Shown piece after piece: positions 2,311-36,603 of a DNA stretch of 64,000 nucleotides (position 1 is the stretch's first letter; every line of letters starts with the position of its first letter). Made by a program: the position numbers and the translations under genes. The stretch is from Methanobacteriota archaeon (GTDB taxonomy: Archaea > Thermoplasmatota > Poseidoniia > Poseidoniales > Thalassarchaeaceae). The stretch lies in contig WTHQ01000037.1 in assembly GCA_011523055.1 (NCBI GenBank), positions 3,210-67,209 on the forward strand. Direction: 5' to 3'. Below the pieces are notes generated by a model. That model had not been told where the DNA came from, did not search any database, and was given only the letters and a program-made list of their open reading frames with translations.

Positions 2311-3519
2311 TCAAATTTCACCCAGTGTGATTATGACAGTCTGTTTCCGCGTCCTCCTGACGTTGAATCCTCCATCCACGAGCATTTCCTCGACCAGATC
2401 CAGCACGCGCTGTGTAACGTCCAACTGGACACCCCAGTATGCAACCTCGCCCTCTGAGTTGCCTGAGAACAGATGATCTCCATCTTCGCTGAACCTGACG
2501 TCATTTATGGAGCCCCTGTTCCCCCTCAGAGTCTTTCGCTCCACACATGTCTCGAGATCCCATAGCCTGATTGTGTTGTCCTTGGAGGCGCTAGCCATTA
2601 ACCTGTGATCGGGTGAAATTGAGATAGCGTGGACATCTCCTGAGTGACCGGTGAAGGTGCCAGTCATTTCCCGTTGGTGGGAATTCCATTTCTGAATCTG
2701 CTTGGCACTCCCAGCGATTATCACCGTTCTCTCGTCATCCAGCATTTTCACGGCCTTGATGGGGTTTGAGAATTCACTTGTTCCGGAGAGATGGGTGTGG
2801 TCTTGTGGCCTCCAGACGTTGACCGACCCGTCGTCACTACCACTTACTAGGGTCATACCGCTCGGTGAGAAGGCTAGCGAGGTGACCGTTCCATCGTGAG
2901 CTCGGAATTCGCTCCTTGTCTCGAGTGTGTCCAAATCCGATATCCTCACGTTCCCGTTGTAGAGGCCAGTGGCAATGGTACGTGTGTTGGAATCTACTGC
3001 CAAGCTGAGTACGCCAAAGCCCCCAAGATCGAGGGTGCTTTGATGCACACAATCAGGTAGTGACCAGAAATGGACTGTTTTGTCCAATGACCCACATGCC
3101 AGAATATCACGTTGTTCGGTTGTTTCTAGACGGGCGTTGTAGGCTGTCTTCTCCAGGGTCCTGACCTCGTCCTTCGATAGAGGGTTCCAAAGGTGAATCC
3201 TTTGGTCCATCCCCGCAGAAGCACAAGTAGAGTTTGCCACGAAGGATACCGATGTCACAGGGTCCTTATGCAAGATCCGAGAGTATAGAGGTCCGCCCAA
3301 CATAATCTCAACACTGTCCCTAGGCCCGCTGAGTGAGGAGATTTTCTCTTTGATCCTGAATATCCTGATGAAGTCGAGGGCAGTCTGCCGCTCGCCCTCC
3401 TCAGTGGCGATCCTGTCTTCCTCGATCTTCTCTCTGATGTTTCCACTGAGCCCTGAGAATGGATTCTCGGGCTTGTCTCGATTGGCCTCAGGATCTGTCT
3501 TTTCCACCATTCCAAGCAA
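2311..3519 (-). CDS. WD40-repeat beta-propeller protein
   Basis: Repeated WD-type motifs (HLWNP, VHFWSLPD, VNVWRPQ, IRLWDLET, VAYWGV) with GH..D spacing. No signal peptide. Sits 14 nt downstream of the giant surface-protein gene. Confidence 0.8.
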   Translation of the reverse strand: MLGMVEKTDPEANRDKPENPFSGLSGNIREKIEEDRIATEEGERQTALDFIRIFRIKEKISSLSGPRDSVEIMLGGPLYSRILHKDPVTSVSFVANSTCASAGMDQRIHLWNPLSKDEVRTLEKTAYNARLETTEQRDILACGSLDKTVHFWSLPDCVHQSTLDLGGFGVLSLAVDSNTRTIATGLYNGNVRISDLDTLETRSEFRAHDGTVTSLAFSPSGMTLVSGSDDGSVNVWRPQDHTHLSGTSEFSNPIKAVKMLDDERTVIIAGSAKQIQKWNSHQREMTGTFTGHSGDVHAISISPDHRLMASASKDNTIRLWDLETCVERKTLRGNRGSINDVRFSEDGDHLFSGNSEGEVAYWGVQLDVTQRVLDLVEEMLVDGGFNVRRTRKQTVIITLGEI

Positions 3520-3532
3520 CCCCTAGGACAGG

Positions 3533-6500
3533 TCATTCCTGCTTAGATTCCTCCATCGACCTGATCCGCTTCTTTAGTCGATCTCGAATCAATGGGGCCA
3601 TAAACAGGGCTGCAACAAGCACCAATGCGATAAAAGCTCCGAAAACTGCGAATGTTTCGCTCACTCTGGCGGCGACTGCTTCGCATTCCTTGTTGTTGTC
3701 GACATCGCTGGGGATGCTATTGAAGTCCAGTGGGTCCGATCTGCACCTTATCTCATCAAGGTCTGTCCACCCATCTCCATCATCATCGAGATCGATAATT
3801 AGTGTAGATGGGATGCCTTCAACCAAAAAGTCGGTGAGCCCGTCCCCGTCTGTATCCAGGTAGGCTGCGGGGTCGAGTGGGAAGGCGTCTGGACCCGCCT
3901 CACAAATGCCGTTAGTGGCTAGGCTGCCATCGCAAATCCCGTCATTGTCTGCGTCTGGATCGGCATTGTCTCCCATGCCGTCCCCGTCGACATCAGAATT
4001 CTCAGTTGGGTCTGCAGGGAATGGGTCTTCTAGGTCCGACGTACCATCGAGGTCACAATCTAGCTTGAGTGTGCAGCCCTCATGTTCGTCAACATTGAGC
4101 AGCCCGTCTCCATCTGAGTCTGTGTCCGCATTGTCACCAATTCCGTCGTTATCGAAATCACTCCAATCATTGGGGTCCTCTGGGTATTTGTCCTGGTCGT
4201 TGAAGACTCCGTCCCCATCCATGTCTGGATCCTCATCGTCGCAAATGTAGTCTCCATCGATATCGTCGGGCACGTCATTGGGATTCAGTGATGAGGAGTC
4301 GCATTTGTATTCCATGCTGTCAGAATACCCATCCCCGTCATCATCCGCATCCTCATCTCCGTAGAACGCAATCCATGTTGGATCGACCTGGTCTGCCAAC
4401 TGATCATTGTCTCTGTCCATCGGTACGTCTGGGTCGAAGGGCGCGGGATCCTCCCCCCTTGAGCAGACGTTGGGGACCTCGTTGCTACCATCGCAAAACC
4501 CGTCGCCATCCGAATCAGGGTTGAGGGGGTCGGTGCCGCGGTCCGAGGCCGAGATGTAGACCCCGGTGCCGGTCTCTACCGAGTCGTCCAACCCATCTCC
4601 GTCATCGTCTTGGTCTTCGATGAATATTACTGCGGCGTCTTCGGGCAGGTCGTCCCATAGCCCGTCGCCATCAGAATCTCTCGGTAGAGAAGGGTCAGTC
4701 GGATATGGATCTGGCCCGGCTGTACAGGCTTCTCTCTGATAGGGCCCATCACAGATTCCGTCGCCATCTGAGTCCACAACTGTTGGGTCTGTGCCTGTGG
4801 CTAACTCATCCGAATCAAGCACTCCGTCGTTGTCATCATCAGTATCTGATAGGTCCCCCACCGTATCTCCGTCAGTATCAAGCCAGTCAGACGGGTCTAG
4901 TGGGAAGTCGTCCTCGGTGTCCAGGAAGCCGTCATTGTCATCATCCTCATCAGCGACAGCGGGGCCTTCACCATCAAAGTCATCATCTGCCAACATGTCT
5001 CCATCTGTGTCAACAGGGACCTCTGGGTCCAAGGGGTCAGGATCTGGCCCATGGGAACAGGTCCCCGGCACCGAATTGACGCCGTCGCAGAATCCATCAT
5101 CATCAGTGTCTTCATCCAGAGATGACGAGCCCAAGGTTGCCTCTTGGAGATCGCTCATCCCATCGTTGTCGTCATCCAGATCGGAGGTCATTTCCGTGAA
5201 GGCGGAGATGCTCTCTGGAACCCAGTCTGGAATCCCATCCAAGTCATAGTCAGATAGAACTGCCAACTCGATTTCAATAGTCGCGATGGTTCCGCTTGAG
5301 TTGACCGCTGACACAGTGTACGTACTCAATGGGGTCACCTGTAGGGGAGTGCCAGAGATGGTGCCAGTAACTGGTGAAATCTCCAAGCCAAACGGCAGTT
5401 GTGGGCTTATAGACCATGAGACGGCCGAGTTGTTGGTTGCGTTCTTGATAACCCAGAGATCGCTGCCAGTCCCATCATTCGCGTCAAAGTAGAGGTTCCT
5501 TTCGAGGAAGACATATCCAGTATTTCGCCCTGATTCGCTTGATTGTGACCCTGCCCTAACATCGCTGATCATACTCACCGTAAAATCGGAAAGGTCGAGG
5601 GAATGAGGCTCATACCCATTTCCGTCTGTTGACGCAGTGAAGTAAACTATCCCATCGTCACTAGTTGTAAACCCACTATGTTGACCTGGATATGAGGATA
5701 TTGAGCCGGCTTTTAGGTCAGAGGTTAGCCATGCAGTGGCATTGTCTGGCGAGTATAGCCACAGCTCATTTCCCGATTGGCCGTCGTTCGCTGAGAACCC
5801 AACGACTTGCCCTAGCCTGTGGATGCCAGAGGAAGTGGATCCAGGGTTGCTACCACTGGACCCGGGCCTCAAATCTGTATGACGTTGACAGGAGTTGGAT
5901 GATGAGTCATAGGACCAGAGCTCTGCCCCATGACCCTCGTCTCTTGCCGAGAAGTATGCCTTCGTTCCGAATATCGCGATTTCACCGGAGCTGACACTCG
6001 GTTGGCCACTAGAGCTGCCGGGCCATATGTCACACAGAAGGGTGGCTCCCGATTCGAGGCTGTCTATGTCAATTCCCCAGAGTTCAGTGCCGGAATTACC
6101 GTCATTCGCGTCGAAAATTACAATGCTGCCCACCTGTTGGAAACCCAGTTGGAATCCTGGTAGACTCGGAGAATTACCCCCGTTTAGATCGCCGAGTGAC
6201 GAGAACGAGCCAGTGGTGGCATCTACAACCCACGGCTCGTATCCTGAGGTGCCGTCCTGGGCATCGAACAAGAGCCAGCGATCATTGATTGCATGCAGCC
6301 CTGAGAAGGTTCCCGGGTCAGAGCCTTGCTGGCCGGGATTAAGGTCTGCCACCATTTGAGATATCCCTGTCGCTGGATCGTGGCTCCAGAGCTCATTTCC
6401 GTTAACCCCGTCATCAGCGTTGAACCAAATCTTCCCAGCCAGTGGCACCAGACCTGTGGTGCTGCCTGGATTGCTCCCTGAAATGCCCTGTCGGATGTCC

Positions 6501-7129
6501 ACGACCATCCAGTGGCTGTTGTTGGAGGGGTCATAGGCCCAAACCTCTGGCCCTGAGGATTGATCTGTTGCGTCGAAGTAGAGTACGTGATTGAGGGGGG
6601 CTATCCCCCCGAATTTTCCAATCTGTCCGCCCTGTGATGTTGATTGGGCGATTGATGTCAATTGATTGAGTGAACCCGTTGATGGGTCATACTGTTGGAG
6701 CTGTGAGACTGGATTGTTGGCGTCGAAATACAGCATTCCATCCATCGCAACCATGCCATGATTGGGTCCGAGGATGGATGATCCTCCTTGCAGACTGTAT
6801 TCCTTCGAGGGGGCCTCGGCCTCTGGGCAAACTATCGGCGGGCTGCAATCTCCATTTGCCTCGGCTCCGAAGGCTTGGAAGGCGTCGAAGTGAAGCTGGT
6901 CTATCTCACTTCCAAAAACCATAATGCTGGGGTGGTCGAAATTTGCCTCCAACCCGGAATCGACGTGTGTATCCATTCTCTGTGGGTGGCTGGTATATTC
7001 CGCGGTTTGCCCGTGGGAGAAGAACAATGCAATGATGATCATGATCGCGCCGGATCTTGATCGGCCATGCGAGAAGGTCATCGTTTCCCCCAACCCTCCA
7101 TTATTCAAAAATTCGATCCATTGAAGCAC
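3533..7129 (-). CDS. Giant (about 1200 aa) cell-surface protein: signal peptide, ELW-repeat beta-propeller region, Ig-like (He_PIG-type) domain, long Asp-rich thrombospondin-type-3-like calcium-binding repeat region, C-terminal TM anchor with basic tail
   Basis: Single 1198-codon ORF. N-terminal hydrophobic signal (the more likely start is M17, MTFSHGRSRSGAIMIIIALFF, at 7081). At least six repeats carry G[NT]ELW..D (GNELWSHDP, GTELWGIDID, GAELWSYDS, GNELWLYSP, GSDLWVIK). He_PIG-like stretch ISPVTGTISGTPLQVTPLSTYTVSAVNSSG. About 350 aa of DxDxDG.xDxxD units (DTDGDGLTD, DADNDGICDG, DSDGDGLLNVDE). C-terminus FAVFGAFIALVLVAALFMAPLIRDRLKKRIR. The many alternative-frame ORFs in the track are codon-bias artefacts of the Asp/Ser-rich DNA. 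Confidence 0.85.
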   Translation of the reverse strand: MLQWIEFLNNGGLGETMTFSHGRSRSGAIMIIIALFFSHGQTAEYTSHPQRMDTHVDSGLEANFDHPSIMVFGSEIDQLHFDAFQAFGAEANGDCSPPIVCPEAEAPSKEYSLQGGSSILGPNHGMVAMDGMLYFDANNPVSQLQQYDPSTGSLNQLTSIAQSTSQGGQIGKFGGIAPLNHVLYFDATDQSSGPEVWAYDPSNNSHWMVVDIRQGISGSNPGSTTGLVPLAGKIWFNADDGVNGNELWSHDPATGISQMVADLNPGQQGSDPGTFSGLHAINDRWLLFDAQDGTSGYEPWVVDATTGSFSSLGDLNGGNSPSLPGFQLGFQQVGSIVIFDANDGNSGTELWGIDIDSLESGATLLCDIWPGSSSGQPSVSSGEIAIFGTKAYFSARDEGHGAELWSYDSSSNSCQRHTDLRPGSSGSNPGSTSSGIHRLGQVVGFSANDGQSGNELWLYSPDNATAWLTSDLKAGSISSYPGQHSGFTTSDDGIVYFTASTDGNGYEPHSLDLSDFTVSMISDVRAGSQSSESGRNTGYVFLERNLYFDANDGTGSDLWVIKNATNNSAVSWSISPQLPFGLEISPVTGTISGTPLQVTPLSTYTVSAVNSSGTIATIEIELAVLSDYDLDGIPDWVPESISAFTEMTSDLDDDNDGMSDLQEATLGSSSLDEDTDDDGFCDGVNSVPGTCSHGPDPDPLDPEVPVDTDGDMLADDDFDGEGPAVADEDDDNDGFLDTEDDFPLDPSDWLDTDGDTVGDLSDTDDDNDGVLDSDELATGTDPTVVDSDGDGICDGPYQREACTAGPDPYPTDPSLPRDSDGDGLWDDLPEDAAVIFIEDQDDDGDGLDDSVETGTGVYISASDRGTDPLNPDSDGDGFCDGSNEVPNVCSRGEDPAPFDPDVPMDRDNDQLADQVDPTWIAFYGDEDADDDGDGYSDSMEYKCDSSSLNPNDVPDDIDGDYICDDEDPDMDGDGVFNDQDKYPEDPNDWSDFDNDGIGDNADTDSDGDGLLNVDEHEGCTLKLDCDLDGTSDLEDPFPADPTENSDVDGDGMGDNADPDADNDGICDGSLATNGICEAGPDAFPLDPAAYLDTDGDGLTDFLVEGIPSTLIIDLDDDGDGWTDLDEIRCRSDPLDFNSIPSDVDNNKECEAVAARVSETFAVFGAFIALVLVAALFMAPLIRDRLKKRIRSMEESKQE

Positions 7130-7229: not shown

Positions 7230-8315
7230 TCAGATTCCTGGCGCTCTTCCAGACATGATCCGACGCCAAACTGGCGGTATCAGGCAGGGCCACCAGCAGG
7301 CATAGTATCCAGATGGGAGCGTTGGGGCGTCTTGATGCGGTCTCAGCCTCCAAAACGGAACTGCGGCGTGCAGGTGGTGGTCGCTGTGCCTGGTTAATTC
7401 TAGTAGGCTCCATCTAGACCACCTCGCTTCGGTGTTCCAAGCATGTTCGGATTGGAATCTCTTGTCAGAGTCCCCTCTCCTTAGTCCCCAATGCCTGATG
7501 TAATTTACGTATTCGAGGGTAAGTATCGCAATTCCAGAGAGTATGGCCCAACCCAATGCAAAAGATGCAGCCCATTGGTAACCAAGTTGATTGAGTGCCA
7601 GTAGTGCCATGAATGCTGTTGCCTGAAGTATTAGGCCCTGGTACGATGGGTTTGAAAGTCCCTTCCTACCTTTTTTGTTGTGTATCTTCACAGATGATGA
7701 GAACTGCCCCGGTATCGTCCTGAACCAGAACGACCAGATGCCCTCATCGACCCTGGCGCTGGCAGGATCCTCGTCCGTGGCGACGTTTTTGTGGTGGTTG
7801 TGATTGTGTTCCGTTGTGAAGTGAGGGTAATTTATGCTGAACAGTAGCATCCTAGCAAGCCTCCATCCCGGGCTTCTCGGCCTTTGGTGGCCTAGCTCAT
7901 GGGCAGTGACGATGGCAGAGGCTGCGGCAGCCAGACCAGTCGAGAGAGATGCTGCCAATAGCCATGGTGAGAGTCCCTCGGTGAATGCGAAGGCGAAGAA
8001 AGATGCTAGCATAATAAAATGCACAATCCCATGGGCCCAAAGAAGTGCGACGAAGGGTGTCCCGGAAGCACGAGGTGGCCTAGCAACCTTGGATTGCCCC
8101 ATTGCTACGTCGAGGATCGGACCTATGACCCAGATGAAGACGACTCCAAGCAATGTGTAGGCCCCGCCCAAGACGTTACCGGCAATAACCAATGAAGGAC
8201 TGATTAACCCCAGAAGGTGGTATGCCCATGGCTCAGGCGAGAGGGACTCCCCCGTTTCGGTCATGTGTTGTTGTCCCCCCTGACAGACAAAAAGGTGTGC
8301 TTGGGGTTTAGTCAC
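7230..8315 (-). CDS. alkB: AlkB-type integral-membrane non-heme di-iron monooxygenase (alkane 1-monooxygenase / fatty-acid desaturase superfamily)
   Basis: All four AlkB histidine signatures are present in order: HELGHQ (box 1 HELxHK), EHNHNHHK (box 2 EHNxGHH), NYIRHWGL (the NYIEHYGL motif) and LTRHSDHHLHA (box 3 LQRHSDHH). Multiple TM segments. Start overlaps the msrA stop (ATGA, 8312-8315). Confidence 0.8.
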   Translation of the reverse strand: MTKPQAHLFVCQGGQQHMTETGESLSPEPWAYHLLGLISPSLVIAGNVLGGAYTLLGVVFIWVIGPILDVAMGQSKVARPPRASGTPFVALLWAHGIVHFIMLASFFAFAFTEGLSPWLLAASLSTGLAAAASAIVTAHELGHQRPRSPGWRLARMLLFSINYPHFTTEHNHNHHKNVATDEDPASARVDEGIWSFWFRTIPGQFSSSVKIHNKKGRKGLSNPSYQGLILQATAFMALLALNQLGYQWAASFALGWAILSGIAILTLEYVNYIRHWGLRRGDSDKRFQSEHAWNTEARWSRWSLLELTRHSDHHLHAAVPFWRLRPHQDAPTLPSGYYACWWPCLIPPVWRRIMSGRAPGI

Positions 8316-8833
8316 TCATAGAGGTCGCCGAAGAGCTTCACTGCTTTGGAAATTTTCGGTGCCACTACGAGGGAGCAGTATGGCTGATTCGGATTTCTCT
8401 CGAAGTAGTCATGATGATAATCCTCTGCGGGCCAGAATGCTTTGGCAGGCTCGACTTCAGTGGCAATTGGTGAACCATAGGTAGGTTGAATCTGTGAAAT
8501 TACCTGATTTATCGTTGTTTTTTGGCTTTCATCCGAGTAGAAAATACACGTTCTATATTGGGGCCCGACATCATTTCCCTGCCTGTTCACTTGAGTTGGA
8601 TCGTGAAGAGCAAAAAACACACGGAGGATTTTGGTCAGATCAATTACAGAGGGATCGAAAACCACCTTTACAACTTCGGCGTGCCCGGTCCTTTTTCCAC
8701 AGACTTGCTCGTATGTTGGATTTGCAACATCCCCCCCCGAATAGCCAGGAGTCGCTCTTGTAACCCCCCTGAGACCAGACATTCCGCCCTCGATGCACCA
8801 GAAGCAACCGCCCCCCAGAATAATTTCATTCAT
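8312..8833 (-). CDS. msrA: Peptide methionine sulfoxide reductase MsrA
   Basis: GGGCFWCIEG active-site motif and PTYEQVC..TGHAEVV. The ORF-track start at 8911 adds 26 atypical residues and overlaps guaB. The internal Met (MNEIILGGGCFWC) at 8833 gives a canonical N-terminus. Confidence 0.85.
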   Translation of the reverse strand: MNEIILGGGCFWCIEGGMSGLRGVTRATPGYSGGDVANPTYEQVCGKRTGHAEVVKVVFDPSVIDLTKILRVFFALHDPTQVNRQGNDVGPQYRTCIFYSDESQKTTINQVISQIQPTYGSPIATEVEPAKAFWPAEDYHHDYFERNPNQPYCSLVVAPKISKAVKLFGDLYE

Positions 8834-8885
8834 TGACCAGGCCAATTGATGGTGTGGTTTGAATCTACGGACCTGTCTTTGATCA

Positions 8886-10343
8886 CTATCTTCTGTAGTT
8901 CGGAGCTTCACGGGTGATCTCGACGTCGTGTACGTGAGACTCTGATAGACCCGCGTTGGTGATCTTCACAAATGAGCAATTTTCCCTCATGGAGCTGATC
9001 GTCGAGTTCCCTGTGTAGCCCATTGCGGACCTCAATCCTCCTAGAAGCTGGTAGAGAACATCGTCCACAGGCCCCCTTGCTGGAACTCTTCCTTCGATAC
9101 CCTCCGGGACGTACTTTTGGGTGTCCCCCTGCTCGGATTGGAAATATCTGTCATGGGCGCCGTCTGACATGGCACCAACTGACCCCATTCCACGGTAGAC
9201 CTTGTACGACCTGCCTTGGTAGAGAATGGTCTGACCCGGTGCCTCATTTGTCCCTGCAAGAAGCGACCCAATCATGACGCAGTTGGCACCCGCTGCTATT
9301 GCTTTGGCAATGTCCCCACTAAATTTGATCCCACCATCAGCAATGACGGGTATGTCCCGCTCTCTGCATTCCTCAACTGCGTTGATTACCGCAGTCATCT
9401 GAGGGACCCCGACGCCTGACACGATGCGTGTTGTACAGATCGAGCCCGGGCCTATGCCCACCTTTATGCCATCTGCACCAGCGTCAATCAGAGCCTTTGC
9501 AGCGGCTCCTGTCGCCACATTTCCAGCAATGATATCGACATTATTACCCAGTAATTTCTTGATTTTCGCAACGGTTTGTATTACCCCGGACGAGTGCCCG
9601 TGAGCAGTATCGACGACAATGGCATCGGCCCCAGCTTCATGGAGGGACAAGGCTCTTTCTACCCCCTTGGAGCCAGTGCCAGTAGCAGCTGCGACTCGAA
9701 GCCTCCCCCTGTCGTCCTTGCAAGAATCTGGGTGATCGAGATTCCTCTCAATGTCTCTAACGGTCATCAAGCCGACGCATTTCTCACCATCCACAACGAG
9801 GAGTTTCTCTATTCGGTGCTTGTGCATCAGCCTCATGGCCTCATCTGGGTCGACGTCTAATGGCACAGTGACCAGATCCCTTGTCATGAGAGAGCCGACT
9901 TTCTCGGAGTGGTCTTGGACGAATCTGATGTCCCGATTTGTGATAATTCCAACTAACTTATTTTTCTCGAGGACTGGTAAGCCAGAGAATCCATACTCAT
10001 TCTTTAGGTTCAACAGATCTCCGATCGAGGTTTCTGGAGTAGTTGTAACCGGGTCGATTACCATGCCGGCCTCGAACCTCTTCACTCTGGAGACATTCTC
10101 GCATTGCCTTTCAACCGGCATGTTTCGATGAATTACCCCTATTCCACCGGCTTGGGCCAGGGCTATCGCCATCTCTGATTCTGTGACAGTGTCCATCGCT
10201 GCGGAGATGATGGGAATATTCAATCCGATATTCTTGCTGAGGCGTGACGATAATTGGACTTCGGCAGGCAATACTGAGCTACTTGCAGGCAATAGTAGGA
10301 CGTCGTCGAAGGTCAGGGCCTCGGTAATCGTGGGAGCTGCCAT
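8886..10343 (-). CDS. guaB: Inosine-5'-monophosphate dehydrogenase
   Basis: TIM-barrel IMPDH with an inserted CBS pair. Catalytic loop [20 protein letters not shown] and [13 protein letters not shown] motifs. 485 aa. Confidence 0.95.
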
Positions 10344-10450
10344 TGCGGATCTCCAATGCCGGACCTAAATCAACCATTCGTGTAGTTGACATCGATAACT
10401 CACACCACGATAGGCATTCATTAACTTTGAATTCAAGAAACTGGCTGGTT

Positions 10451-11095
10451 ATGACCGTCCAGCCAGCATCGCCCAACTTGTTTTGGCTTAGGGGCACCTC
10501 TATATTCATGTCGTTGATGTTCCTTTTTTCCCTTGCTACAATTGCAAGCTCAGTCGTTACGCCCGTGATCGTGGAAACCTATTGGCCGGGGGAGTGGAGC
10601 GAAATAGCTGGGGATTACCCTGAGAACGGAACTACAAACGAACAGGATGAGTGGGTTGAGGGCAAGCGGTTCTGGAATGAGTCAGTGGATTATTGGGAAG
10701 CCTTGGTTGATTCGGGGCTATTCGAGATCTCTGCAGGATTTGGGTTCATCATGGCCTTGATTTCAGCTGCGTCTGTACCGGTTCTCTGGTCTGGTGATCG
10801 GAATCTCGGGCTCAGATTATGCCTCTCTTGGGTCGTTGTCCTCATGATCAGCCAGATACTGACAACGATGCTCTACTATGAAGTGGGATTCATCCCGGAA
10901 TATTCAGAGTTTGAGCTCAATGGGGAGCTCAAATGGATGAACTATGTTGAGAAGGTTGGGTTGACTTTCTCTATGGCCCAGATATTGATTTGCAATTCTT
11001 GTCTGTTTGCTTGTATTTTTGTTGTTGCAGCGCGCTCAAAGCCCCCGAAGAATGGTTTTGACTTGGAATCGGGATTCCACCGTTCAGAGGGATAA
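10451..11095 (+). CDS. Hypothetical polytopic membrane protein
   Basis: The ORF-track ORF 10343..11095 starts on the same nucleotide as divergent guaB, which leaves no promoter space. An internal Met at 10451 (MTVQPASPNLFW) or 10508 is more plausible. Four or five hydrophobic helices and no known motif. Confidence 0.45.
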   Translation: MTVQPASPNLFWLRGTSIFMSLMFLFSLATIASSVVTPVIVETYWPGEWSEIAGDYPENGTTNEQDEWVEGKRFWNESVDYWEALVDSGLFEISAGFGFIMALISAASVPVLWSGDRNLGLRLCLSWVVVLMISQILTTMLYYEVGFIPEYSEFELNGELKWMNYVEKVGLTFSMAQILICNSCLFACIFVVAARSKPPKNGFDLESGFHRSEG

Positions 11096-11470: not shown

Positions 11471-12019
11471 TTGATGGAAGTCAGCCCCTATCTCCTGCTT
11501 CTCATACCCTTGATTCCACTAATCCTATGGGTGGCGTTTTGGACTATTGCCTATCCAGTGATGTTTCTTTATGGTGCGATAACTTCATCCAGCAGCAAGA
11601 GGCGATGGCGAAAAGACGTCCTAAGAAGGGAAAGAGGCACTATGGAGAAGGTAGGGCGGGATACATTGTCAATGGACAAGATCAGGATTCCCTTGGGTGC
11701 TACCGAATCAGAGGTGATCTGGGCTAGCATTGTCATCGGACCAAGCCACTGGCAACAACTAATCGGCTCATTGTACAACATAATAGGAGGCTCAGTCGAC
11801 GTATACAGGGACATCATCGCAATCGGCAGGTCAGAGGTTCTCCAGAGACTGAGGGAAATCGCCGAGGAGAAGGGATTTGACAATGTCGTGGCTGTTAGGC
11901 TGGACACCAGCATGATTGGTACCTTTCGATCTCAGGGCAAGGGATCGAAGGGGATTGAGATCTTTGCCTATGGAACTGGCGTGAAAACTGAGGTTCCAAG
12001 CTCGTTTATTGTACAATAG
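11471..12019 (+). CDS. Membrane-anchored YbjQ/UPF0145 paralog (N-terminal TM helix plus DUF74 domain)
   Basis: N-terminus LLLLIPLIPLILWVAFWTIAYPVMFLYGAI is a TM helix. The C-terminal half repeats YbjQ hallmarks (IIGGSVDVY, GFDNVVAVRLDTS, FAYGTGVK). Starts 13 nt after the first paralog. Confidence 0.7.
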   Translation: MMEVSPYLLLLIPLIPLILWVAFWTIAYPVMFLYGAITSSSSKRRWRKDVLRRERGTMEKVGRDTLSMDKIRIPLGATESEVIWASIVIGPSHWQQLIGSLYNIIGGSVDVYRDIIAIGRSEVLQRLREIAEEKGFDNVVAVRLDTSMIGTFRSQGKGSKGIEIFAYGTGVKTEVPSSFIVQ

Positions 12020-21066: not shown

Positions 21067-23127
21067 ATGGAGCCGATAAGGCGCGTTGCGATAGTTGGGG
21101 CTGGAAATATGGGATCTGGGATCGCCCAGAAATCCGCACAAGAAGGTTTCTCGGTGCAAATGATCGATAGAGAAGAGGGCTACGTCGAGCGAGGAATTAA
21201 TACAATCAAGGAATTCCTGCAAGAGGCCATACAGAGGAGGATTTTCTCTGAAAGCCAAGTTGAGGCGATCATGGCAAACATCACTGGAGTAGTAGGTGCG
21301 GATTCCATACATTTAGACACGGACCTGGTGATTGAAGCTGTATTCGAGGATATTGAAGTGAAATCTAGTGTACTGAATGTTCTCTCATCCTCCTGCGACG
21401 AAAAGACGATCATTGCGACTAACACCTCTTCCTTGTCGGTTCAAGAGTTGTCATCTCTGTCAGACCGTCCCGACCGATTTATTGGGTTGCATTTCTTCTA
21501 CCATCCCGCGAAAAACAGACTTGTCGAAATAATTCCTTCGTCTTCGACATCGGAAGAGACCATTCAGTCAGTCACCCAATATTGCCGGGCAATGGGCAAG
21601 GTTGTCATCCTCTGCAAAGATAGGCCTGGTTTTGTCGTTAATCGTTTCTTCGTTCCATGGCTCAATGAGGCATGCAGATTACTTGACGAGGGGCTTGGGA
21701 CACCTGCCCAGATCGACTCCACGGCCAGGGAATGTTTCGGTATTGGGATGGGTCCCTTCGAATTGATGAATCTAACAGGGCCCTCGATCGCTCTTCACTC
21801 GTCCGATTACCTCTCCTCGCAGCTGGAGACGGATCGGTTTAGAGGTGCAGACTGCTTAAGGAAACTCGTCGAGGATGGAGGTCAATGGGACCTCTCGGAA
21901 GCAAGTGATACGACCACCTCTGAGTGTTATGAGAAGATCAAGAATCGGTTGCTCGGCGTTATCTTCTGTGTATCCTCCCAAATCGTTGAGGAGGAGATTT
22001 GTAGCTTGGAAGATGTGGATAGGGGTGCTAAAGTGGGTTTGAGATGGCCAATCGGCCCATTTGAAATAGCAAACAGGATGGGAGTTGGAACCGCGTCTAG
22101 AATTGCTTCTGAATATGCAACCACAGCGGGATTGGAAGTCCCTCGAATTCTATCAGATAGAGGGTCCAAGCCGTTCGATTTCAACCTGATAGACATAGAG
22201 GTCGAAAACGGCGTGGCGGACATAACGTTCAATCGGCCAGAGGCGATGAATGCTCTGAATGAGCAAGTGGTTTCTCAGCTTCGAGACATCTGGGATGGAC
22301 TAGAAGCGGACCAAAACGTCCACTCTGCCATCTTCAGGGGAGCAGGTAAAGCATTTGTCGCAGGTGCTGACATCAAGTTCTTTGTCGACAAGATTGAGGG
22401 TGGCAGGATTGATCAGATCAGGGACTTTACCGAGATGGGGCACGCCATACTGAATAGGATCGAGTCATCGAGGATCAACACGATTGCGGTAGTCTCTGGG
22501 CTTGCATTGGGAGGAGGCCTAGAACTGGCCATGTGCTGCAAACATAGAATCGGCGTTAGGGGGAAGACAATGCTAAGATTCCCTGAAACTGGAATCGGGA
22601 TCTACCCTGGGCTTGGGGGCACACAAAGATCCGTTATGATTGCAGGGGTCGAATGCGCCAGATACAGCATAATCGGAGGGAACTGGATGGATTCGACCCT
22701 ATCACACTCCATCGGATACCTCACAAATATCGTGGAATTTGGAGAATTGGAAGAAGAAATAGAAAAGATCGTGAAGGGGGAGGTTGGAGCCCCTGGATAC
22801 TGTTATGAGCCAAGAGACCCAGATAATCCGCTTGTGAGCCAGATCCTGGAAACCTATGGAGAAGGGTGGCATGACGACCTAGTGGTATCGCCTTCATCTA
22901 CTGGCCCATTCCAGGAAAGACAAGTGAAGTTAATTTCGAGGAACGCGCCCATTTCGATAGAGATGGCCTCTGAACTGATCGAAATCGCCAGTAATTCCCG
23001 CGACGAACCGACAGTAGGATTGAAATCAGAATTGGATGGCTTGGAGAGAATTTTCTCCACCAAAGATGCCCTGATCGGACTCAAGGGTGTCCTAAATGGT
23101 GATAGGGTTCGATTCTTTGGCGAATGA
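21067..23127 (+). CDS. Fused 3-hydroxyacyl-CoA dehydrogenase (N-terminal) / enoyl-CoA hydratase (crotonase, C-terminal) beta-oxidation enzyme
   Basis: N-terminal Rossmann VAIVGAGNMGSGIA and 3HCDH middle region. C-terminal crotonase-fold motifs (AFVAGADIKFF, ALGGGLELAMCC). 686 aa. Confidence 0.9.
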   Translation: MEPIRRVAIVGAGNMGSGIAQKSAQEGFSVQMIDREEGYVERGINTIKEFLQEAIQRRIFSESQVEAIMANITGVVGADSIHLDTDLVIEAVFEDIEVKSSVLNVLSSSCDEKTIIATNTSSLSVQELSSLSDRPDRFIGLHFFYHPAKNRLVEIIPSSSTSEETIQSVTQYCRAMGKVVILCKDRPGFVVNRFFVPWLNEACRLLDEGLGTPAQIDSTARECFGIGMGPFELMNLTGPSIALHSSDYLSSQLETDRFRGADCLRKLVEDGGQWDLSEASDTTTSECYEKIKNRLLGVIFCVSSQIVEEEICSLEDVDRGAKVGLRWPIGPFEIANRMGVGTASRIASEYATTAGLEVPRILSDRGSKPFDFNLIDIEVENGVADITFNRPEAMNALNEQVVSQLRDIWDGLEADQNVHSAIFRGAGKAFVAGADIKFFVDKIEGGRIDQIRDFTEMGHAILNRIESSRINTIAVVSGLALGGGLELAMCCKHRIGVRGKTMLRFPETGIGIYPGLGGTQRSVMIAGVECARYSIIGGNWMDSTLSHSIGYLTNIVEFGELEEEIEKIVKGEVGAPGYCYEPRDPDNPLVSQILETYGEGWHDDLVVSPSSTGPFQERQVKLISRNAPISIEMASELIEIASNSRDEPTVGLKSELDGLERIFSTKDALIGLKGVLNGDRVRFFGE

Positions 23128-28639: not shown

Positions 28640-29203
28640 CTACTCATCACTTTCGCCCTTGACGAACAGTGGGGTGCCACGTTCCCTGGCCTTCCCAATC
28701 TGGTAGACCAAAAACGCGATGAAGGACAGGATGATCAATTCCAAACCGAAGAAGGTCAGGCGAAACCTTTCATCATCCGATGCAGAGGCTTGCGTATTGG
28801 GTGGCTCTGCATCTGGTAGGACCTCTTCGCCTGGTAGAACAGTTATTGTCCCGACCATTCCAAGTTGTTCATGGGGTTCGCAGACGAAATCGTAGGTCCC
28901 ATTGGTCCCCAATTCGAAGACGAATCGGTAGTCGACATCTCGAGATGGTTCCCCACTGTCAAAGATCCCATCGAGGGCCACTGCATTGTGCGCTAATAGC
29001 TCACCTGACCAGAAAAATCTGACTGCCTGACCCTCTTTTATGGTCACGTCAGAGGGGCTGAACTGGAGATTTGTGCTATCCACGCCAATGATAACATCGT
29101 CATCCTCTTGTGCGGCAGCGGGCCCCGATGAGAGTAGGACCATGACGATGAAACACAAACCCGCGGAGTGAACTCTCACATCAAACCCTCGTGGGCTTGA
29201 CAC
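28640..29203 (-). CDS. Blue (type 1) copper protein, halocyanin/plastocyanin-like, with signal peptide and C-terminal TM anchor
   Basis: Cu ligand set H...C-x2-H-x4-M in YDFVCEPHEQLGMVGTITV, with the upstream His in ELLAHNAVAL. N-terminal signal. C-terminal helix FFGLELIILSFIAFLVYQI. Confidence 0.8.
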   Translation of the reverse strand: MSSPRGFDVRVHSAGLCFIVMVLLSSGPAAAQEDDDVIIGVDSTNLQFSPSDVTIKEGQAVRFFWSGELLAHNAVALDGIFDSGEPSRDVDYRFVFELGTNGTYDFVCEPHEQLGMVGTITVLPGEEVLPDAEPPNTQASASDDERFRLTFFGLELIILSFIAFLVYQIGKARERGTPLFVKGESDE

Positions 29204-29214
29204 TTAGAATGGTG

Positions 29215-29910
29215 TCATTCTTCCTCTTCGACCTTTCGTGGCTCATGAACCTCTCTGAATACCACAGTAGCGACATCAAGGTGCTCTCTGAGTGTTCTCA
29301 CGAGGCTGAATTTTGCATAGGGCCAGTTCTGGTCATATGCAATCGATTCAGGCAGGGTTATGGTGACGTCGTCCTTTTCGAATTTAACTTCGAAGTCATC
29401 TCTTCCAGTGTTCATCTCAAGTAGGGTTTGGACTCTAGCCTTCTTTTGCTTCACGACCTTGACTATTGTGTAGGTGTATCGTAGTCTTACTCCTGCCAAG
29501 GGGTGGTTGTAGTCTATCCTGGCCCTTCCGGCCCTAGCCATCTGAAGTGTCCCTGTGCGACCATTAATTTCCACCTGAGACCCTATGGCAAGTGTGTCAG
29601 GATCTCTAACGCTCCTCATCAACACATTCATGCCCACAGTCTCGACGAGGTTTCCATCTCGATCGCCGTAGGCATCTTCTGGATCGATGTCGAATGTGTA
29701 TTCCTCGTTCTCCTTCGCCCCATCGAGGTGTTCTTCGAAGCCTTTGATTAGCCGGCCATCGCCGATCACCGTGATCATGGGCTTGTAAGTTCGCCTCTCG
29801 TCGTGAATGTCATGTTCCTTGGCGACCTCCTCGCGAGTGGTTTCAAGCAGCAAATCCGTGTCTGCATTGTATAAGTCATAGTCGATGTGGACGATCGTTC
29901 CCTTCTTCAT
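29215..29910 (-). CDS. FKBP-type peptidyl-prolyl cis-trans isomerase (long archaeal SlyD-like type with IF insertion)
   Basis: Start taken at the internal Met MKKGTIVHIDYDLYNADTDLL. GFEEHLDGAKENEEYTFDIDPEDAYGDRD and a C-terminal chaperone domain. The ORF-track start 29955 adds 15 atypical residues. Confidence 0.85.
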   Translation of the reverse strand: MKKGTIVHIDYDLYNADTDLLLETTREEVAKEHDIHDERRTYKPMITVIGDGRLIKGFEEHLDGAKENEEYTFDIDPEDAYGDRDGNLVETVGMNVLMRSVRDPDTLAIGSQVEINGRTGTLQMARAGRARIDYNHPLAGVRLRYTYTIVKVVKQKKARVQTLLEMNTGRDDFEVKFEKDDVTITLPESIAYDQNWPYAKFSLVRTLREHLDVATVVFREVHEPRKVEEEE

Positions 29911-29955
29911 GTTGGAGCCTCCAGTAGGCCGGGCGACCTGCTTGCCCTTTTTCAT

Positions 29956-32343
29956 TCAGTCGGTTGGTCCAATAAACAATTTACGCTTGCTGAGCATCGG
30001 GAGCGAACCCCCGATCAGGAGTAGAATCCAACCGAACCAGACCATATGGCTTCCCTTGAGGTCGTAAACGGTTACTCCAACTCTATCCACTTCGTCAATT
30101 TCACCCATCATCATGTTGGTGATGACCCTGTTGGCTTGCTGAATGTCCAAGATGAACATCAAGTCGCCGTCCAACTGAGTAACTCTGTCTACCTCTGACC
30201 TAGGAATTATGGCTCCAGAAGGAGTATCAAACCGAAGTATGGAGGGACTGACTTCATTGATGAATTCCCCCTCCAAATCAGCTACATCTATGTGGAATCT
30301 CACAAGGCCGTCGGCTATCGAGTACCCATAGCCCGGGTCGCTGGAATCTAGGATCTCCAACCCAGTGAAAGTCAGGATGTAGCCTTCGTGTTCCACCGGC
30401 TGGTCCTTGACCAAGGTCACCAAGTGGGAGGGATCCGTCCGATCGACCAATGTAGTAGTCAATACGTGTCCAAAAAGAAGGAGCAGGATGCCGACATGTG
30501 CGATGCTAGAGCCCACCGATCTTAGACCCCGATTCGACCGATTGAATTGAGGGGCGCTGGCACTAGCTGTTTTCGATTTCCTTAGCGCTCTAATCATCTC
30601 GCCGATGGACGAGGGTATTGAGAAGATAACCAGGGTTAGCAGGAATGCACTAACCTGTCCCCTAGTCAGTTCCTCTGTAAGATACCTGTCAGCATCCCCG
30701 GGCAAGGCTATTTTGTCCGACATGAGTCCTGATGTTATTGACAGCAAGAGGATTCCGAGGACAACGAAGAGCCCGGTTTTACCGTTTGATCTGATCCCCC
30801 ATGAATGAAAAATCAGACCGATGGCGAGTGCTGCGACGAAGGGAGCGCCGAAGACCTCATGAGCCTCTAGACTGGTTCCGTCTATCTCCGCCGTCAAGAG
30901 CATCCATGTCAATGCTAGATACCCCATGGCTCCAAACCATGGGGTGGATCTCGCGAAGGCATTCTGGCTCCTGGCGTTCACTAGCCTCTCGATGGGGATT
31001 CCTTCAGCATCCTTTGGCGACGAAAGCACCCATGGCAAGAGGAACACTGCCATCCCCATGATAGATAGGGAAAGGGGCGCCATCCAAGACCAGCTGGCAA
31101 AAAGGTACAGTGCGACACCTGAAAAAATCCAAACAGGGTCAGCATCATCTCCATCGCCCTCTATGACCAGAACCATCAAGCCCATGCTCAGCGACAACAA
31201 GAGAACGGAGCCGCTGAGTACACCGATGATTATCACGGCAGTCACAAGGAAAATGGAAAGTGTTGGAGTGGTTTTTCTCATTGAAGACCTACCCTGAATA
31301 CTGAGTGCAGCAGATTGATTTTTCATCAGGTTCCTCAAGATTGCTAGCCCGAAAAGGACTGTTATAATCAAGTAGGTCATTACCTCGACTCCAGCCGCAC
31401 CTTCGCCGAACAAGGAGACTATTCGCAGGTATGGATCTGATGACTCAGACCCAACACCGTCCGCCGCGAAGGAATGCACCGATGCCCACACGCCATTGGC
31501 CCTGGTCACCAATGTCGCATGCATGGCCAATGCACCCACTGCAATCACGATTGATGGGCTGGAGGCCAGGGCCCTCTTGTCAGACTGGCTTCTCGCATGC
31601 AGGACTGCCACTAAGCCGATCCATGGCAAGAATGAGGCTGTTTCAACCGGATCCCACGCCCAATACCCCCCCCAATCGAGTACGGTGTAAGCCCACAAAC
31701 CCCCTAGTCCAATCCCTGCGGTTCCAACCACAAATGCAGCTCTCGACCAAGGAAGGGTTCGCTGGTGGATCGTGGCCTGATCGAGCCCCAAAATCGACCC
31801 CGCCACAGATATCAGTGCAGGTATGATGCATAGTGAATAGAAAGCGAAAATCACGGGCGGGTGGATGACCATTAGGTCTGTTTGTAGGAGTGGATTCAGT
31901 TGGCCGCTGAAGCCAGAACTTGGTGCAAATGGGTCCAGTAGGATCGAAATGGACAGTAGCGTCCCCGTGAAACCAACACACAGCCTCAATGAGAGGTTCT
32001 GAGCGTCTTTCGTTTTTGTGAGTAAGAACGTACCGAGTGCCATCCAACCACACCACATCAGTAGTGGGCCTGCTCTACCACCCCATACTGCTGATATTCT
32101 GTAAAATAGGGGGAGATCCGAACCTCCAAGAGTCGCTACCATCTCCAGCGAATCCCAATCCAGAAGAAAAGCAAGGAGGAGCAGTGCGAATGGGCTGGAT
32201 TGGAGAATTAACAGATACCTGAGTTGCGATGTCTTTGAGGATTTTTTGTTAGAGGCCCAATACAGAGATACTGCTGCCGCAGTGAAGAGGACCAATCGGC
32301 CAGTGAGTGACAACAAGTGACTACCATCCGTAATATTTCGCAC
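29956..32343 (-). CDS. ccmF: Cytochrome c-type biogenesis heme lyase CcmF-like (WWD-domain polytopic membrane protein with C-terminal periplasmic domain)
   Basis: Tryptophan-rich WWD signature DWGGYWAWDPVETASFLPWI (compare the CcmF consensus [20 protein letters not shown]). At least 12 TM helices. An about 200 aa C-terminal soluble domain. 795 aa. Confidence 0.8.
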   Translation of the reverse strand: MRNITDGSHLLSLTGRLVLFTAAAVSLYWASNKKSSKTSQLRYLLILQSSPFALLLLAFLLDWDSLEMVATLGGSDLPLFYRISAVWGGRAGPLLMWCGWMALGTFLLTKTKDAQNLSLRLCVGFTGTLLSISILLDPFAPSSGFSGQLNPLLQTDLMVIHPPVIFAFYSLCIIPALISVAGSILGLDQATIHQRTLPWSRAAFVVGTAGIGLGGLWAYTVLDWGGYWAWDPVETASFLPWIGLVAVLHARSQSDKRALASSPSIVIAVGALAMHATLVTRANGVWASVHSFAADGVGSESSDPYLRIVSLFGEGAAGVEVMTYLIITVLFGLAILRNLMKNQSAALSIQGRSSMRKTTPTLSIFLVTAVIIIGVLSGSVLLLSLSMGLMVLVIEGDGDDADPVWIFSGVALYLFASWSWMAPLSLSIMGMAVFLLPWVLSSPKDAEGIPIERLVNARSQNAFARSTPWFGAMGYLALTWMLLTAEIDGTSLEAHEVFGAPFVAALAIGLIFHSWGIRSNGKTGLFVVLGILLLSITSGLMSDKIALPGDADRYLTEELTRGQVSAFLLTLVIFSIPSSIGEMIRALRKSKTASASAPQFNRSNRGLRSVGSSIAHVGILLLLFGHVLTTTLVDRTDPSHLVTLVKDQPVEHEGYILTFTGLEILDSSDPGYGYSIADGLVRFHIDVADLEGEFINEVSPSILRFDTPSGAIIPRSEVDRVTQLDGDLMFILDIQQANRVITNMMMGEIDEVDRVGVTVYDLKGSHMVWFGWILLLIGGSLPMLSKRKLFIGPTD

Positions 32344-33616: not shown

Positions 33617-33654
33617 AAGCGAACCTTCTCAATGGGGGGGCGTGAGGAAGTGTT

Positions 33655-35616: not shown

Positions 35617-35628
35617 GAGGCCTGTACA

Positions 35629-36603
35629 ATGAAAGGAAAAGATGTCCTTGATTTTGTTAAAGTTGAGCATACCTTGTTCTCATTGCCGTTTGTGCTGATA
35701 GGCTTCATTCTTGCCCGGAAGGAATTCGAAGAGGATGTTTTCCAGCTCAGCCCTTCGAACTTGGACCTTATTTGGATTATTATCGCAGCGATTGGGGCCC
35801 GAGGGCTGGCCATGGCATTGAACAGAATCATTGACAAGGACATAGACGCTTTGAATCCTCGAACGGCCTCAAGGCATCTTCCCTCTGGAAGGATGAATGA
35901 CCTTGAGGCTTGGTCCTTATCGCTTGTATTCCTCGCTGCGCTTCTGGGCGCTTCTTGGAGGTTGAACATGGTTGCTCTCCAGATGGCATGGTTGCCAGTC
36001 GTGGCATTCATTGTCTACCCGTACATGAAACGGATCTCCTGGATATGCCACTTTTGGATAGGTCTTTGCCTTGCTATGGCCCCAGCAGGAGCTTGGGTCG
36101 CAGTATCTGCTGACACGTTAGGATGGGGGTCAATCATGGGAGTTGGAGGTGGCAATTGGACAAATAGGGACTTCGAATGGTTTCCTGAGTTGCTCTTCAT
36201 TTCGATAGGTGTGGCGCTATGGATAACTGCGTTCGACGTGAACTATGCACGGATGGATGTCGAAGTCGACCGGAACCAGGGGATTCGATCGTTCCCGGCG
36301 AAATTTGGACTCAAGTCGACCATGATACTAAGCATCGCCCTGACGATTGGATGGCTTTTTTGCTTCTTAACTGCTGGATTGGGCCAATTTACAGACAATC
36401 GCGACTACAGGTTTCCATATTGGATTCCCTGTGTTATATTGATGTGCGTTGTCAATTTGTATGTAATGACTTTCTTGGCAGCGAAATCCGATTCCTCTGA
36501 GATGGAGATGGAACGGTTCCAGAAAATCCTGTTCAATGCCTCAATGCTGACCGGTTGGGTATTGCTAGCGAGTCTTTCATTCACCGAGGCCACAATTCGT
36601 TGA
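35629..36603 (+). CDS. UbiA-family aromatic prenyltransferase
   Basis: First Asp-rich motif NRIIDKDIDALNPRT (NxxxDxxxD). Second motif in DVNYARMDVEVDRNQG. Eight or nine TM helices. Starts 13 nt after the UbiD homolog. Confidence 0.85.
   Translation: MKGKDVLDFVKVEHTLFSLPFVLIGFILARKEFEEDVFQLSPSNLDLIWIIIAAIGARGLAMALNRIIDKDIDALNPRTASRHLPSGRMNDLEAWSLSLVFLAALLGASWRLNMVALQMAWLPVVAFIVYPYMKRISWICHFWIGLCLAMAPAGAWVAVSADTLGWGSIMGVGGGNWTNRDFEWFPELLFISIGVALWITAFDVNYARMDVEVDRNQGIRSFPAKFGLKSTMILSIALTIGWLFCFLTAGLGQFTDNRDYRFPYWIPCVILMCVVNLYVMTFLAAKSDSSEMEMERFQKILFNASMLTGWVLLASLSFTEATIR

Follow-up and report, generated by a model that had tools for sequence, protein, structure and literature searches.

Is the gene annotated as alkB in some of the most abundant archaea of the surface ocean a gene for alkane oxidation? 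The question is raised by a 64-kb stretch of DNA from an archaeon of the Thalassarchaeaceae (contig WTHQ01000037.1; the whole analysed stretch is hereafter called the window). The part under study, 7230..10343 on the minus strand, carries three successive open reading frames (ORFs): guaB, msrA and a gene for an AlkB-like membrane protein. Marine Group II (MGII) archaea are among the most abundant archaea of surface waters, and passages of PMC13488336 take their 'alkB' as a sign that archaea consume alkanes within the cyanobacterial hydrocarbon cycle. This consumption has been deduced from annotation alone. Our analyses suggest that the protein is almost certainly a divergent AlkB-family member, that is, an integral-membrane, histidine-ligated di-iron monooxygenase. 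The alkane label is nevertheless unproven, given the clade-wide Arg in place of a Glu, the msrA neighbour and the lack of a nearby electron carrier. What sets it apart from known AlkB is its Arg-type active site, a coupling to msrA across the order, a linked carrier that is consistently missing and a distribution over two domains.

Gene models and family placement

The three genes are as follows.

7230..8264, minus strand: AlkB-family integral-membrane di-iron oxygenase, 344 amino acids (aa), Arg-type (NYIRHWG for NYxEHYG); Pfam PF00487, 1.3e-27
8312..8833, minus strand: msrA, a 173-aa peptide-methionine (S)-S-oxide reductase with its start ATG at 8833; PF01625, 2e-62; TIGR00401, 180 bits (cut-off 108)
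8886..10343, minus strand: guaB, inosine monophosphate dehydrogenase with a CBS pair, 485 aa; TIGR01302, 629 bits (cut-off 481.5); PF00478, 6e-160; PF00571

The first-pass annotation of this DNA had named the same three consecutive minus-strand ORFs, and the TIGR01302, TIGR00401 and PF00487 matches bear this out. It had given the AlkB-like protein 361 aa, which is the length of a mechanical ORF read from GTG to stop; this model was discarded, as conservation does not extend to its 17 additional codons and relatives have different spacers. Homologues and gene callers all start the protein at the ATG at 8264, which with the stop at 7230–7232 gives 344 aa, and a homologue with 99.7% identity (P0001) matches across all 344 aa. 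The msrA start at 8833 is backed by a full 173-aa alignment with relatives from ca. 55 loci; MNEIILGGGCFWC comes after this ATG, and the protein keeps the catalytic Cys motif GCFWC. Public gene calls give an msrA of 156 aa (9483..9953 in locus L001), which starts at Met44 of the mechanical ORF 8312..8911 and loses the catalytic GCFWC cysteine, and this model was also rejected. In GuaB, the CBS pair, which this enzyme carries within its barrel, appears as two stretches.

No NCBIfam model matches the AlkB-family protein, and its sole Pfam match is to the umbrella family PF00487 (FA_desaturase). This match, together with the label 'fatty acid desaturase' that NCBI gives to some members, could suggest a mis-assigned protein that is really a fatty-acid desaturase, a carotenoid ketolase/hydroxylase (CrtW/CrtR) or a sphingolipid hydroxylase. 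However, a phmmer search against all PDB sequences found only the AlkB entries of Fontimonas thermophila (8f6t, 4e-40; 8sbb, 4e-38). A profile built from 14 clade members matched AlkB at ca. 4e-47 and no other relevant chain up to an E-value of 10, the one extra match being a ribosomal protein at E = 1.4, by chance. The AlphaFold2 model (mean predicted local distance difference test score, pLDDT, 82.5; predicted template modelling score, pTM, 0.85) has six long transmembrane helices in three pairs, and in a Foldseek search against the PDB only 8f6t and 8sbb gave E-values below 1e-3 (TMq 0.76).

The four histidine boxes noticed in the first-pass annotation are all read, in the order HELGHQ, EHNHNHHK, NYIRHWG and RHSDHHLHA, and the fourth AlkB/XylM-specific box (NYxxH), which argues against the desaturase and ketolase assignments, is among them. 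The nine Fe-ligating His residues (H122, 126, 153, 157, 158, 258, 293, 296 and 297) correspond by alignment to H137, 141, 167, 171, 172, 272, 311, 314 and 315 of FtAlkBG, where the FtAlkBG numbering was taken from Chai et al. 2023 (PMC10113152) and mapped through the PDB phmmer alignment. They are invariant in a 19-sequence alignment of MGII-clade homologues with the annotated AlkB of Pseudomonas (OCT-type operon), Marinobacter, Rhodococcus and Persicobacter and XylM of pWW0, and all four boxes are kept in 102 of the 105 full-length clade homologues. Because the nine AlkB histidines are present and the six-helix fold matches only AlkB structures, the carotenoid-ketolase and lipid-desaturase alternatives were rejected; the three-box, eight-His enzymes related to FADS (CrtW/CrtR, desaturase and sphingolipid hydroxylase) are ruled out by the sequence and fold searches, and mis-assignment is so improbable as to be nearly negligible. 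Placement among these enzymes had been named in the first-pass annotation as the outcome that would make its label wrong, and both kinds of search returned AlkB only. Its proposal of a di-iron, integral-membrane AlkB-family enzyme thus holds, and the protein very probably is a di-iron oxygenase of this family acting on an aliphatic chain.

In a neighbour-joining tree rooted on XylM, the clade falls inside the AlkB radiation, apart from the characterised enzymes of Pseudomonas, Marinobacter and Rhodococcus. This tree, made from the nearest 50%-identity representatives, is rough, star-like and without support values, and it serves only for the position of the clade in the AlkB radiation.

An arginine at the active site

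In FtAlkBG, the Glu of the motif NYxEHYG (Glu271) is a ligand of Fe2, lies 3.2 Å from the substrate methyl and is the proposed proton donor (Chai et al. 2023, PMC10113152); in FtAlkB, the same residue (E281) is the conserved one that sets AlkB apart from desaturases (Guo et al., PMC10110569). By alignment, this position is R257 in the window's protein (motif NYIRHWG). Across 143 tree-aligned sequences, comprising 127 nearest 50%-identity representatives together with clade members and references, the position is held by Glu in 107, by Gln (the XylM state) in 17 and by Arg in 15. The Glu-to-Arg change across the clade appears to be unreported. The orientation of Arg257 is presumed from its alignment with Glu271.

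An Arg near Fe2 might bind an anionic head group, such as the carboxylate of a free fatty acid, in which case the reaction would be alpha/beta hydroxylation or oxidative decarboxylation rather than omega-hydroxylation of alkanes. The invariance of the Arg, at a position 3.2 Å from the substrate methyl in FtAlkBG, fits this idea, as does the XylM-type Gln at the same position, which goes with an altered substrate class. Arg-anchored P450 peroxygenases (P450BSbeta and OleT) and UndB would provide an analogy. However, entry to the AlkB tunnel is from the membrane core and the tunnel is hydrophobic throughout, so that it is not obvious how a charged head group could get through (PMC10113152), and no gene context speaks for such a reaction. 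Carboxylate-anchored oxidation is therefore improbable.

The tunnel gate, which consists of Trp55 in the GPo1 enzyme or Ile54 in FtAlkBG, plus Ala127 (PMC10113152), corresponds by alignment to Ile44 (Ile54 of FtAlkBG) and Ala112 (Ala127), and position 44 is Ile in 69 and Val in 38 clade sequences. Judged from these aligned residues, the Ile/Val and Ala gate is of the small-residue, long-chain type, like that of the long-chain enzymes in PMC10113152. The basic patch on which rubredoxin docks in FtAlkB is partly kept (R128, R271, a K/R-rich stretch at 196–201 and R262/R263).

Conservation of the locus and the msrA–alkB junction

An archaeal host, as had been assumed, is confirmed, and assigned to MGII (Poseidoniales), by homologues named MGII or Thalassarchaeaceae and by archaeal housekeeping genes in the window, namely Taw1 (wyosine synthesis), L7Ae, deoxyhypusine synthase, CDC48 and PyrBI. 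The 120 best homologues are 61%–100% identical; their names include Marine Group II, Poseidoniales, Thalassarchaeaceae, Thermoplasmatota and Euryarchaeota, and some carry the JGI annotation 'alkane 1-monooxygenase'. Among 80 loci from GTDB species genomes, 74 have archaeal labels, mostly those of Poseidoniales/MGII or of Marine Group III (MGIII), and six have labels of bacterial metagenome-assembled genomes (MAGs). The order guaB–msrA–alkB is kept in ca. 55 of these 80 loci, in both MGIIa and MGIIb, with Taw1, YbjQ and ABC-FtsX as shared neighbours; its conservation across the order appears to be unreported. In MGIII, the gene lies between a sulfotransferase and a C1 peptidase.

The identity of AlkB tracks that of GuaB over 43 loci (r = 0.85; mean identities of 72.4% for AlkB, 74.7% for GuaB and 61.5% for MsrA), which indicates vertical descent under strong purifying selection. 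The gene is thus a vertically inherited, near-core gene of Poseidoniales, unlike the patchy, plasmid-borne alkB of bacteria. Its conservation at about the level of guaB also appears to be unreported.

A much more divergent AlkB-like protein was observed in a Poseidoniaceae MAG (GCA_016777125.1; L105/L106, 8001..8975). It has 324 aa, ca. 40% identity and the motif NYIQHHG, and it lies in the same Taw1 / ABC-FtsX-ABC / FadB neighbourhood, without guaB and msrA. It could be a fast-diverged orthologue or a replacement.

The first-pass annotation had described the three genes as translationally coupled through ATGA overlaps. In the window this does not hold: 52 nt separate the guaB TAG (8886–8888) from the msrA ATG (8833), 47 nt separate the msrA TGA (8312–8314) from the alkB ATG (8264), and the GTGA at the msrA stop is the start of the mechanical ORF only. 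Between msrA and alkB, coupling does hold in most other Poseidoniales. In 23 related loci, the alkB ATG lies within the last msrA codons (CTG TAT GAG TGA), giving an 8-nt overlap (ATGAGTGA), and ca. 19 further loci have other small overlaps, so that ca. 42 of ca. 55 overlap in total. Two features of the window's junction bear on this difference.

8265..8311, minus strand: msrA–alkB spacer, 47 nt, holding the motif GCACACCTTTTTG
8319..8308, minus strand: vestigial overlapping start, ATG AGT GAC TAA, read from the sequence

The second is a remnant of the ATGAGTGA overlap of msrA and alkB seen in most other Poseidoniales. A spacer of 47–53 nt occurs only in the window's own sub-clade (L015–L024). 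Here the motif GCACACCTTTTTG, at 8288..8300 on the minus strand, ends 23 nt before the alkB ATG. Across the nine species of this sub-clade it is invariant, apart from a single-base difference in one locus pair, and its distance to the ATG is fixed at 23–24 nt; the surrounding bases of the spacer vary. The motif may be an archaeal TATA-like promoter of a leaderless alkB mRNA, an oligo-T terminator of msrA, or both. In the window's genus, alkB probably has a promoter of its own, while most relatives couple its translation to that of msrA. The spacer with GCACACCTTTTTG was observed to take the place of the 8-nt gene overlap found elsewhere in the order.

The adjacency of the two genes in ca. 55 MGIIa and MGIIb loci, with overlap in ca. 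42, could also reflect a shared substrate class, in which the AlkB-like protein would oxidise a methyl thioether to the sulfoxide and MsrA would act on methyl sulfoxides. Pseudomonas AlkB sulfoxidises thioethers. However, the two activities together would form a futile cycle, msrA is not beside the gene in MGIII and the bacterial clade members, and in the window a probable promoter/terminator splits the pair. The literature search gave no paper linking MsrA and AlkB. A sulfur-oxidation pair is accordingly very improbable.

Relatives outside the archaeal clade

Arg-type homologues with 64%–66% identity were found on MAG contigs with bacterial labels, namely Proteobacteria, Gammaproteobacteria, Arenicellales, Acidiferrobacter and Rhodoferax (L084, L088, L067, L069, L087 and L094; GC content of 52%–59%). 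In two of them (L084, 10001..11017; L088, 10001..11011) the neighbours are clearly bacterial: an LIV-type ABC transporter, SoxA cytochrome c, TauD and a glyoxalase at one, and nitrile hydratase alpha and beta subunits and a sulfatase at the other. Mis-binned MGII DNA as the source of these two loci is ruled out by the bacterial neighbours and the GC content. The bacterial neighbours of these homologues indicate that horizontal transfer between archaea and Proteobacteria took place. Proteobacterial homologues at this level of identity appear to be unreported.

Beyond the clade, the nearest relatives are short bacterial AlkB-like proteins of 323–349 aa with 39%–46% identity (clusters P0122–P0132), in which the former Glu position varies (R, Q, G or E). 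The cluster around the Arg-type P0125 includes a B12-radical-SAM enzyme, FA_hydroxylase, glycosyltransferases, a fatty acyl-AMP ligase (FAAL) and a polyketide synthase (PKS). The Arg-type P0129 of Bacteroidota adjoins a PAP2 phosphatase, an epimerase and a short-chain dehydrogenase/reductase (SDR), and the closest sister, the Gln-type P0270, adjoins a B12-radical-SAM enzyme and PhyH. A Glu-type relative with ca. 40% identity, P0126 (L095, 1..9041), lies on a 393-kb metagenomic contig in an archaeal-looking context (an HTH_10 regulator and archaeal-type T2SSE/F). The genes just before it encode an AAA-type kinase-like protein and an aldehyde dehydrogenase, with an enoyl-CoA hydratase, a 3-hydroxyacyl-CoA dehydrogenase and a PaaA/PaaC-like protein nearby. 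This locus is a candidate for a genuine archaeal alkane-degradation cluster.

Search for an electron partner

The first-pass annotation had found no rubredoxin nearby, and this result now extends to all six frames of the 64-kb window and to 86 related loci. Six-frame regular expressions (CxxCG...CPxC and 4Fe-4S motifs) over the window gave no rubredoxin-like or 4Fe-4S motif, and the ca. 50 window ORFs scanned with Pfam included no rubredoxin and no rubredoxin reductase. In the related loci, taken with flanks of up to 10 kb on each side where the contig permits, phmmer and the motif search found no rubredoxin within ca. 10 kb of the gene. The phmmer search compared three annotated AlkF/AlkG references with stop-to-stop segments of at least 35 aa in the window and the 86 loci. 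The protein itself is a single domain of 344 aa with no fused rubredoxin. In the control operons (OCT-type and Marinobacter), rubredoxins lie directly downstream of alkB. However, the best plasmid-borne bacterial AlkB match, that of Persicobacter, also has no rubredoxin nearby, and missing linkage is therefore not disqualifying by itself.

Alkanes or an endogenous lipid

The published reading is that free alkanes, long-chain and probably cyanobacterial, are oxidised for catabolism and feed beta-oxidation. We regard it as plausible, at slightly less than an even chance. By homology with AlkB, the six transmembrane helices hold the nine histidines, which ligate a pair of irons on the cytoplasmic side, and a hydrophobic tunnel opening to the bilayer and gated by Ile44/Ala112 would take a chain of C13 or longer with its end towards the irons. 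Two electrons would arrive singly from a small acidic carrier encoded elsewhere, docking on the kept basic cytoplasmic patch; this carrier could be a rubredoxin or, more likely in this archaeon, a ferredoxin. Activation of O2 and hydroxylation of a terminal C–H bond would follow. The most likely substrate would be a C15–C17 alkane from phytoplankton or cyanobacteria, and the alcohol would be oxidised by unlinked alcohol and aldehyde dehydrogenases before entering MGII beta-oxidation.

Two genes of the window are consistent with such a pathway.

21067..23127, plus strand: FadB-like fusion of 3-hydroxyacyl-CoA dehydrogenase and enoyl-CoA hydratase; PF02737, 1e-54; PF00725; PF00378/PF16113
59228..60880, plus strand: aldehyde dehydrogenase; PF00171, 9e-142

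The FadB-like gene (13 kb away) is a possible beta-oxidation step downstream of AlkB, and the aldehyde dehydrogenase (51 kb away) is another possible downstream step; both are unlinked. Alkane oxidation is further favoured by the Glu-type sister P0126 (40% identical), which lies beside an aldehyde dehydrogenase, an enoyl-CoA hydratase and a 3-hydroxyacyl-CoA dehydrogenase. The gate of the long-chain type, the partly kept docking patch, the fatty-acid degradation of all MGII genera (PMC6461757) and the published MGII/MGIII alkB transcripts (PMC13488336) also speak for it.

Several observations weigh against free alkanes. The position of the NYxEHYG Glu is Arg in 119 of the 120 clade homologues, and both AlkB structure papers single out this Glu as conserved and AlkB-specific (PMC10113152, PMC10110569). 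The sole characterised relatives without it are of the XylM type (Gln), and their substrate class differs. The gene stands in a housekeeping string (guaB, msrA, Taw1 and YbjQ), and linked genes for a rubredoxin, a reductase, an alcohol dehydrogenase or a regulator are lacking from the window and from the 86 related loci. Arg- and Gln-type sisters occur in contexts resembling lipid biosynthesis, which appears to be unreported. In addition, the expression of MGII/MGIII alkB is low according to passages of PMC13488336, at 1.5 or less in reads per kilobase per million mapped reads (RPKM), and the published MGII 'alkB' consists, in the passages concerned, of KEGG/EC annotation and read mapping, with no assay of a clade member reported there.

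Alternatively, the enzyme could serve housekeeping lipid modification by hydroxylating or desaturating the chain end of the cell's own membrane lipid or of a quinone's alkyl or isoprenoid chain; co-expression with MsrA would then reflect a shared role against O2 and light stress at the sea surface. This alternative, a serious one although we consider it rather doubtful, draws on much of the same evidence: alkB is conserved like guaB and diverges together with it, the housekeeping string is conserved with no catabolic island, most lineages couple alkB translationally to msrA, no redox partner or alkane-pathway gene is linked, the active-site Glu is replaced by Arg, and P0125, P0129 and P0270 have the contexts described above. 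On the other hand, no hydroxylated MGII lipid is known, MGII being without cultures, the sister contexts are only three and all from distant bacteria, and the gate residues resemble those of ordinary long-chain AlkBs. Moreover, the neighbours are unrelated in MGIII (sulfotransferase and peptidase C1) and in bacterial clade members (nitrile hydratase or TauD). A role in lipid modification or oxidative stress had been suggested in the first-pass annotation, and the Glu-to-Arg change, the housekeeping context and the contexts of the Arg/Gln sisters give it some support.

A broader proposal can be made tentatively, with the balance inclining somewhat against it: the Poseidoniales 'alkB' may be no alkane monooxygenase but the founding member of an Arg-type AlkB-like subfamily, with Arg in place of the catalytic Glu. 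It would act on one of the cell's own lipids or on a polar or anionic aliphatic compound, its expression would be tied to MsrA, and horizontal transfer would account for its sharing with some Proteobacteria of sea and fresh water. In that case, the alkane consumption that models of the short-term ocean hydrocarbon cycle ascribe to archaea would go back to a mis-annotation.

Other features of the window

Directly downstream of alkB, on the minus strand, lies a gene for a predicted surface protein of 1198 aa (3533..7129). It has propeller-type repeats resembling 'DGxxGxELW', an He_PIG Ig domain, many Asp-rich thrombospondin-type-3 calcium-binding repeats and, at its C terminus, a membrane anchor. 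Next comes the gene for a WD40 protein of 402 aa (2311..3519, minus strand), and both genes are kept downstream of alkB within the window's sub-clade. On the opposite side of the string, tandem YbjQ_1 genes (PF01906; 11122..11457 and 11471..12019, plus strand), the second with a membrane-like N-terminal extension, stand beside guaB throughout MGII, together with a membrane protein of 214–250 aa without a Pfam match (10343..11095). A respiratory and quinone-related cluster at 28640..36603 comprises genes for a copper protein resembling plastocyanin/azurin, a protein of 795 aa with a domain of the cytochrome-c-assembly (CcsA-like) type, a flavoprotein resembling geranylgeranyl reductase and a UbiD–UbiA pair.

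Published reports and significance

AlkB homologues had been called rare in archaea in the first-pass annotation, but an AlkB homologue in MGII is neither new nor rare. The genus heat-map of Rinke et al. (2018; PMC6461757) includes 'alk, alkane 1-monooxygenase' across MGII genera, and a passage of the same paper states that fatty-acid degradation is encoded in all of them. Persian Gulf MGII MAGs with alkB/xylM are described in a passage of Somee et al. (2021; PMC8166890). Passages of a 2026 study (PMC13488336) give 365 alkB genes in 361 MGII/MGIII MAGs, of which 14 recruit transcripts, and place these transcripts at the deep chlorophyll maximum, a layer in which alkane synthesis genes of Prochlorococcus are expressed; rubredoxin expression is given there for Bacteroidota only. 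The keyword-matched passages of these three papers are silent on the replacement of Glu by Arg, on the coupling to msrA and on clade members from bacteria, and they report no rubredoxin genes or transcripts for archaeal MAGs.

The identity of the substrate has consequences either way. If the enzyme oxidises alkanes, the Glu would be dispensable, which would constrain proposals for the AlkB mechanism, and the question of the archaeal carrier would arise. Otherwise, a considerable share of the alkane sink inferred for the ocean would be mis-assigned, and there would be a new lipid-oxidising enzyme to describe.

Comparison with known systems

The short bacterial AlkB-like proteins (P0122–P0132) are likewise uncharacterised and differ from the MGII gene in their contexts of lipid/polyketide biosynthesis, B12-radical-SAM enzymes and PAP2.

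XylM, of the xylene/toluene monooxygenase of pWW0, belongs to the same superfamily branch as the MGII protein, has the NYxxHYG box and also lacks the Glu, with Gln in its place. Since XylM hydroxylates C–H bonds with this Gln, the family can do so without the Glu. However, its identity to the MGII protein is 26%, and it is an outgroup to the clade in the neighbour-joining tree. Behind XylM comes its 2Fe-2S reductase XylA, with benzyl-alcohol and benzaldehyde dehydrogenases as flanking genes, and nothing comparable is found at the MGII gene. An aromatic methyl monooxygenase of the XylM type was therefore rejected, given the Arg instead of Gln, the 26% identity and the absence of a XylA-like gene from the window.

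AlkB itself (Pseudomonas putida GPo1 type; FtAlkB/FtAlkBG, 8sbb and 8f6t) shares with the MGII protein the six-helix fold (TMq 0.76), the nine histidines in four boxes, a hydrophobic tunnel gated by small residues, a basic cytoplasmic surface and 30%–35% local identity. It differs in the conserved Glu (Glu271/E281), where the MGII protein has Arg257, and in the motif HYG, which is HWG in the MGII protein; the second MGII box, EHNHNHH, has a His at the equivalent of AlkB Arg169. The MGII protein also falls short of AlkB by 50–60 aa; it lacks a C-terminal extension and has two deletions in loops. In the OCT-type operon (L009), the genes after alkB encode two rubredoxins, an aldehyde dehydrogenase and an oxidoreductase of the choline dehydrogenase type, whereas at the MGII gene a rubredoxin, a reductase, AlkH/AlkJ and a regulator are all missing, both as fusions and as linked genes. 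In contrast to such systems, the MGII alkB is chromosomal and vertically inherited, in a housekeeping string downstream of msrA.

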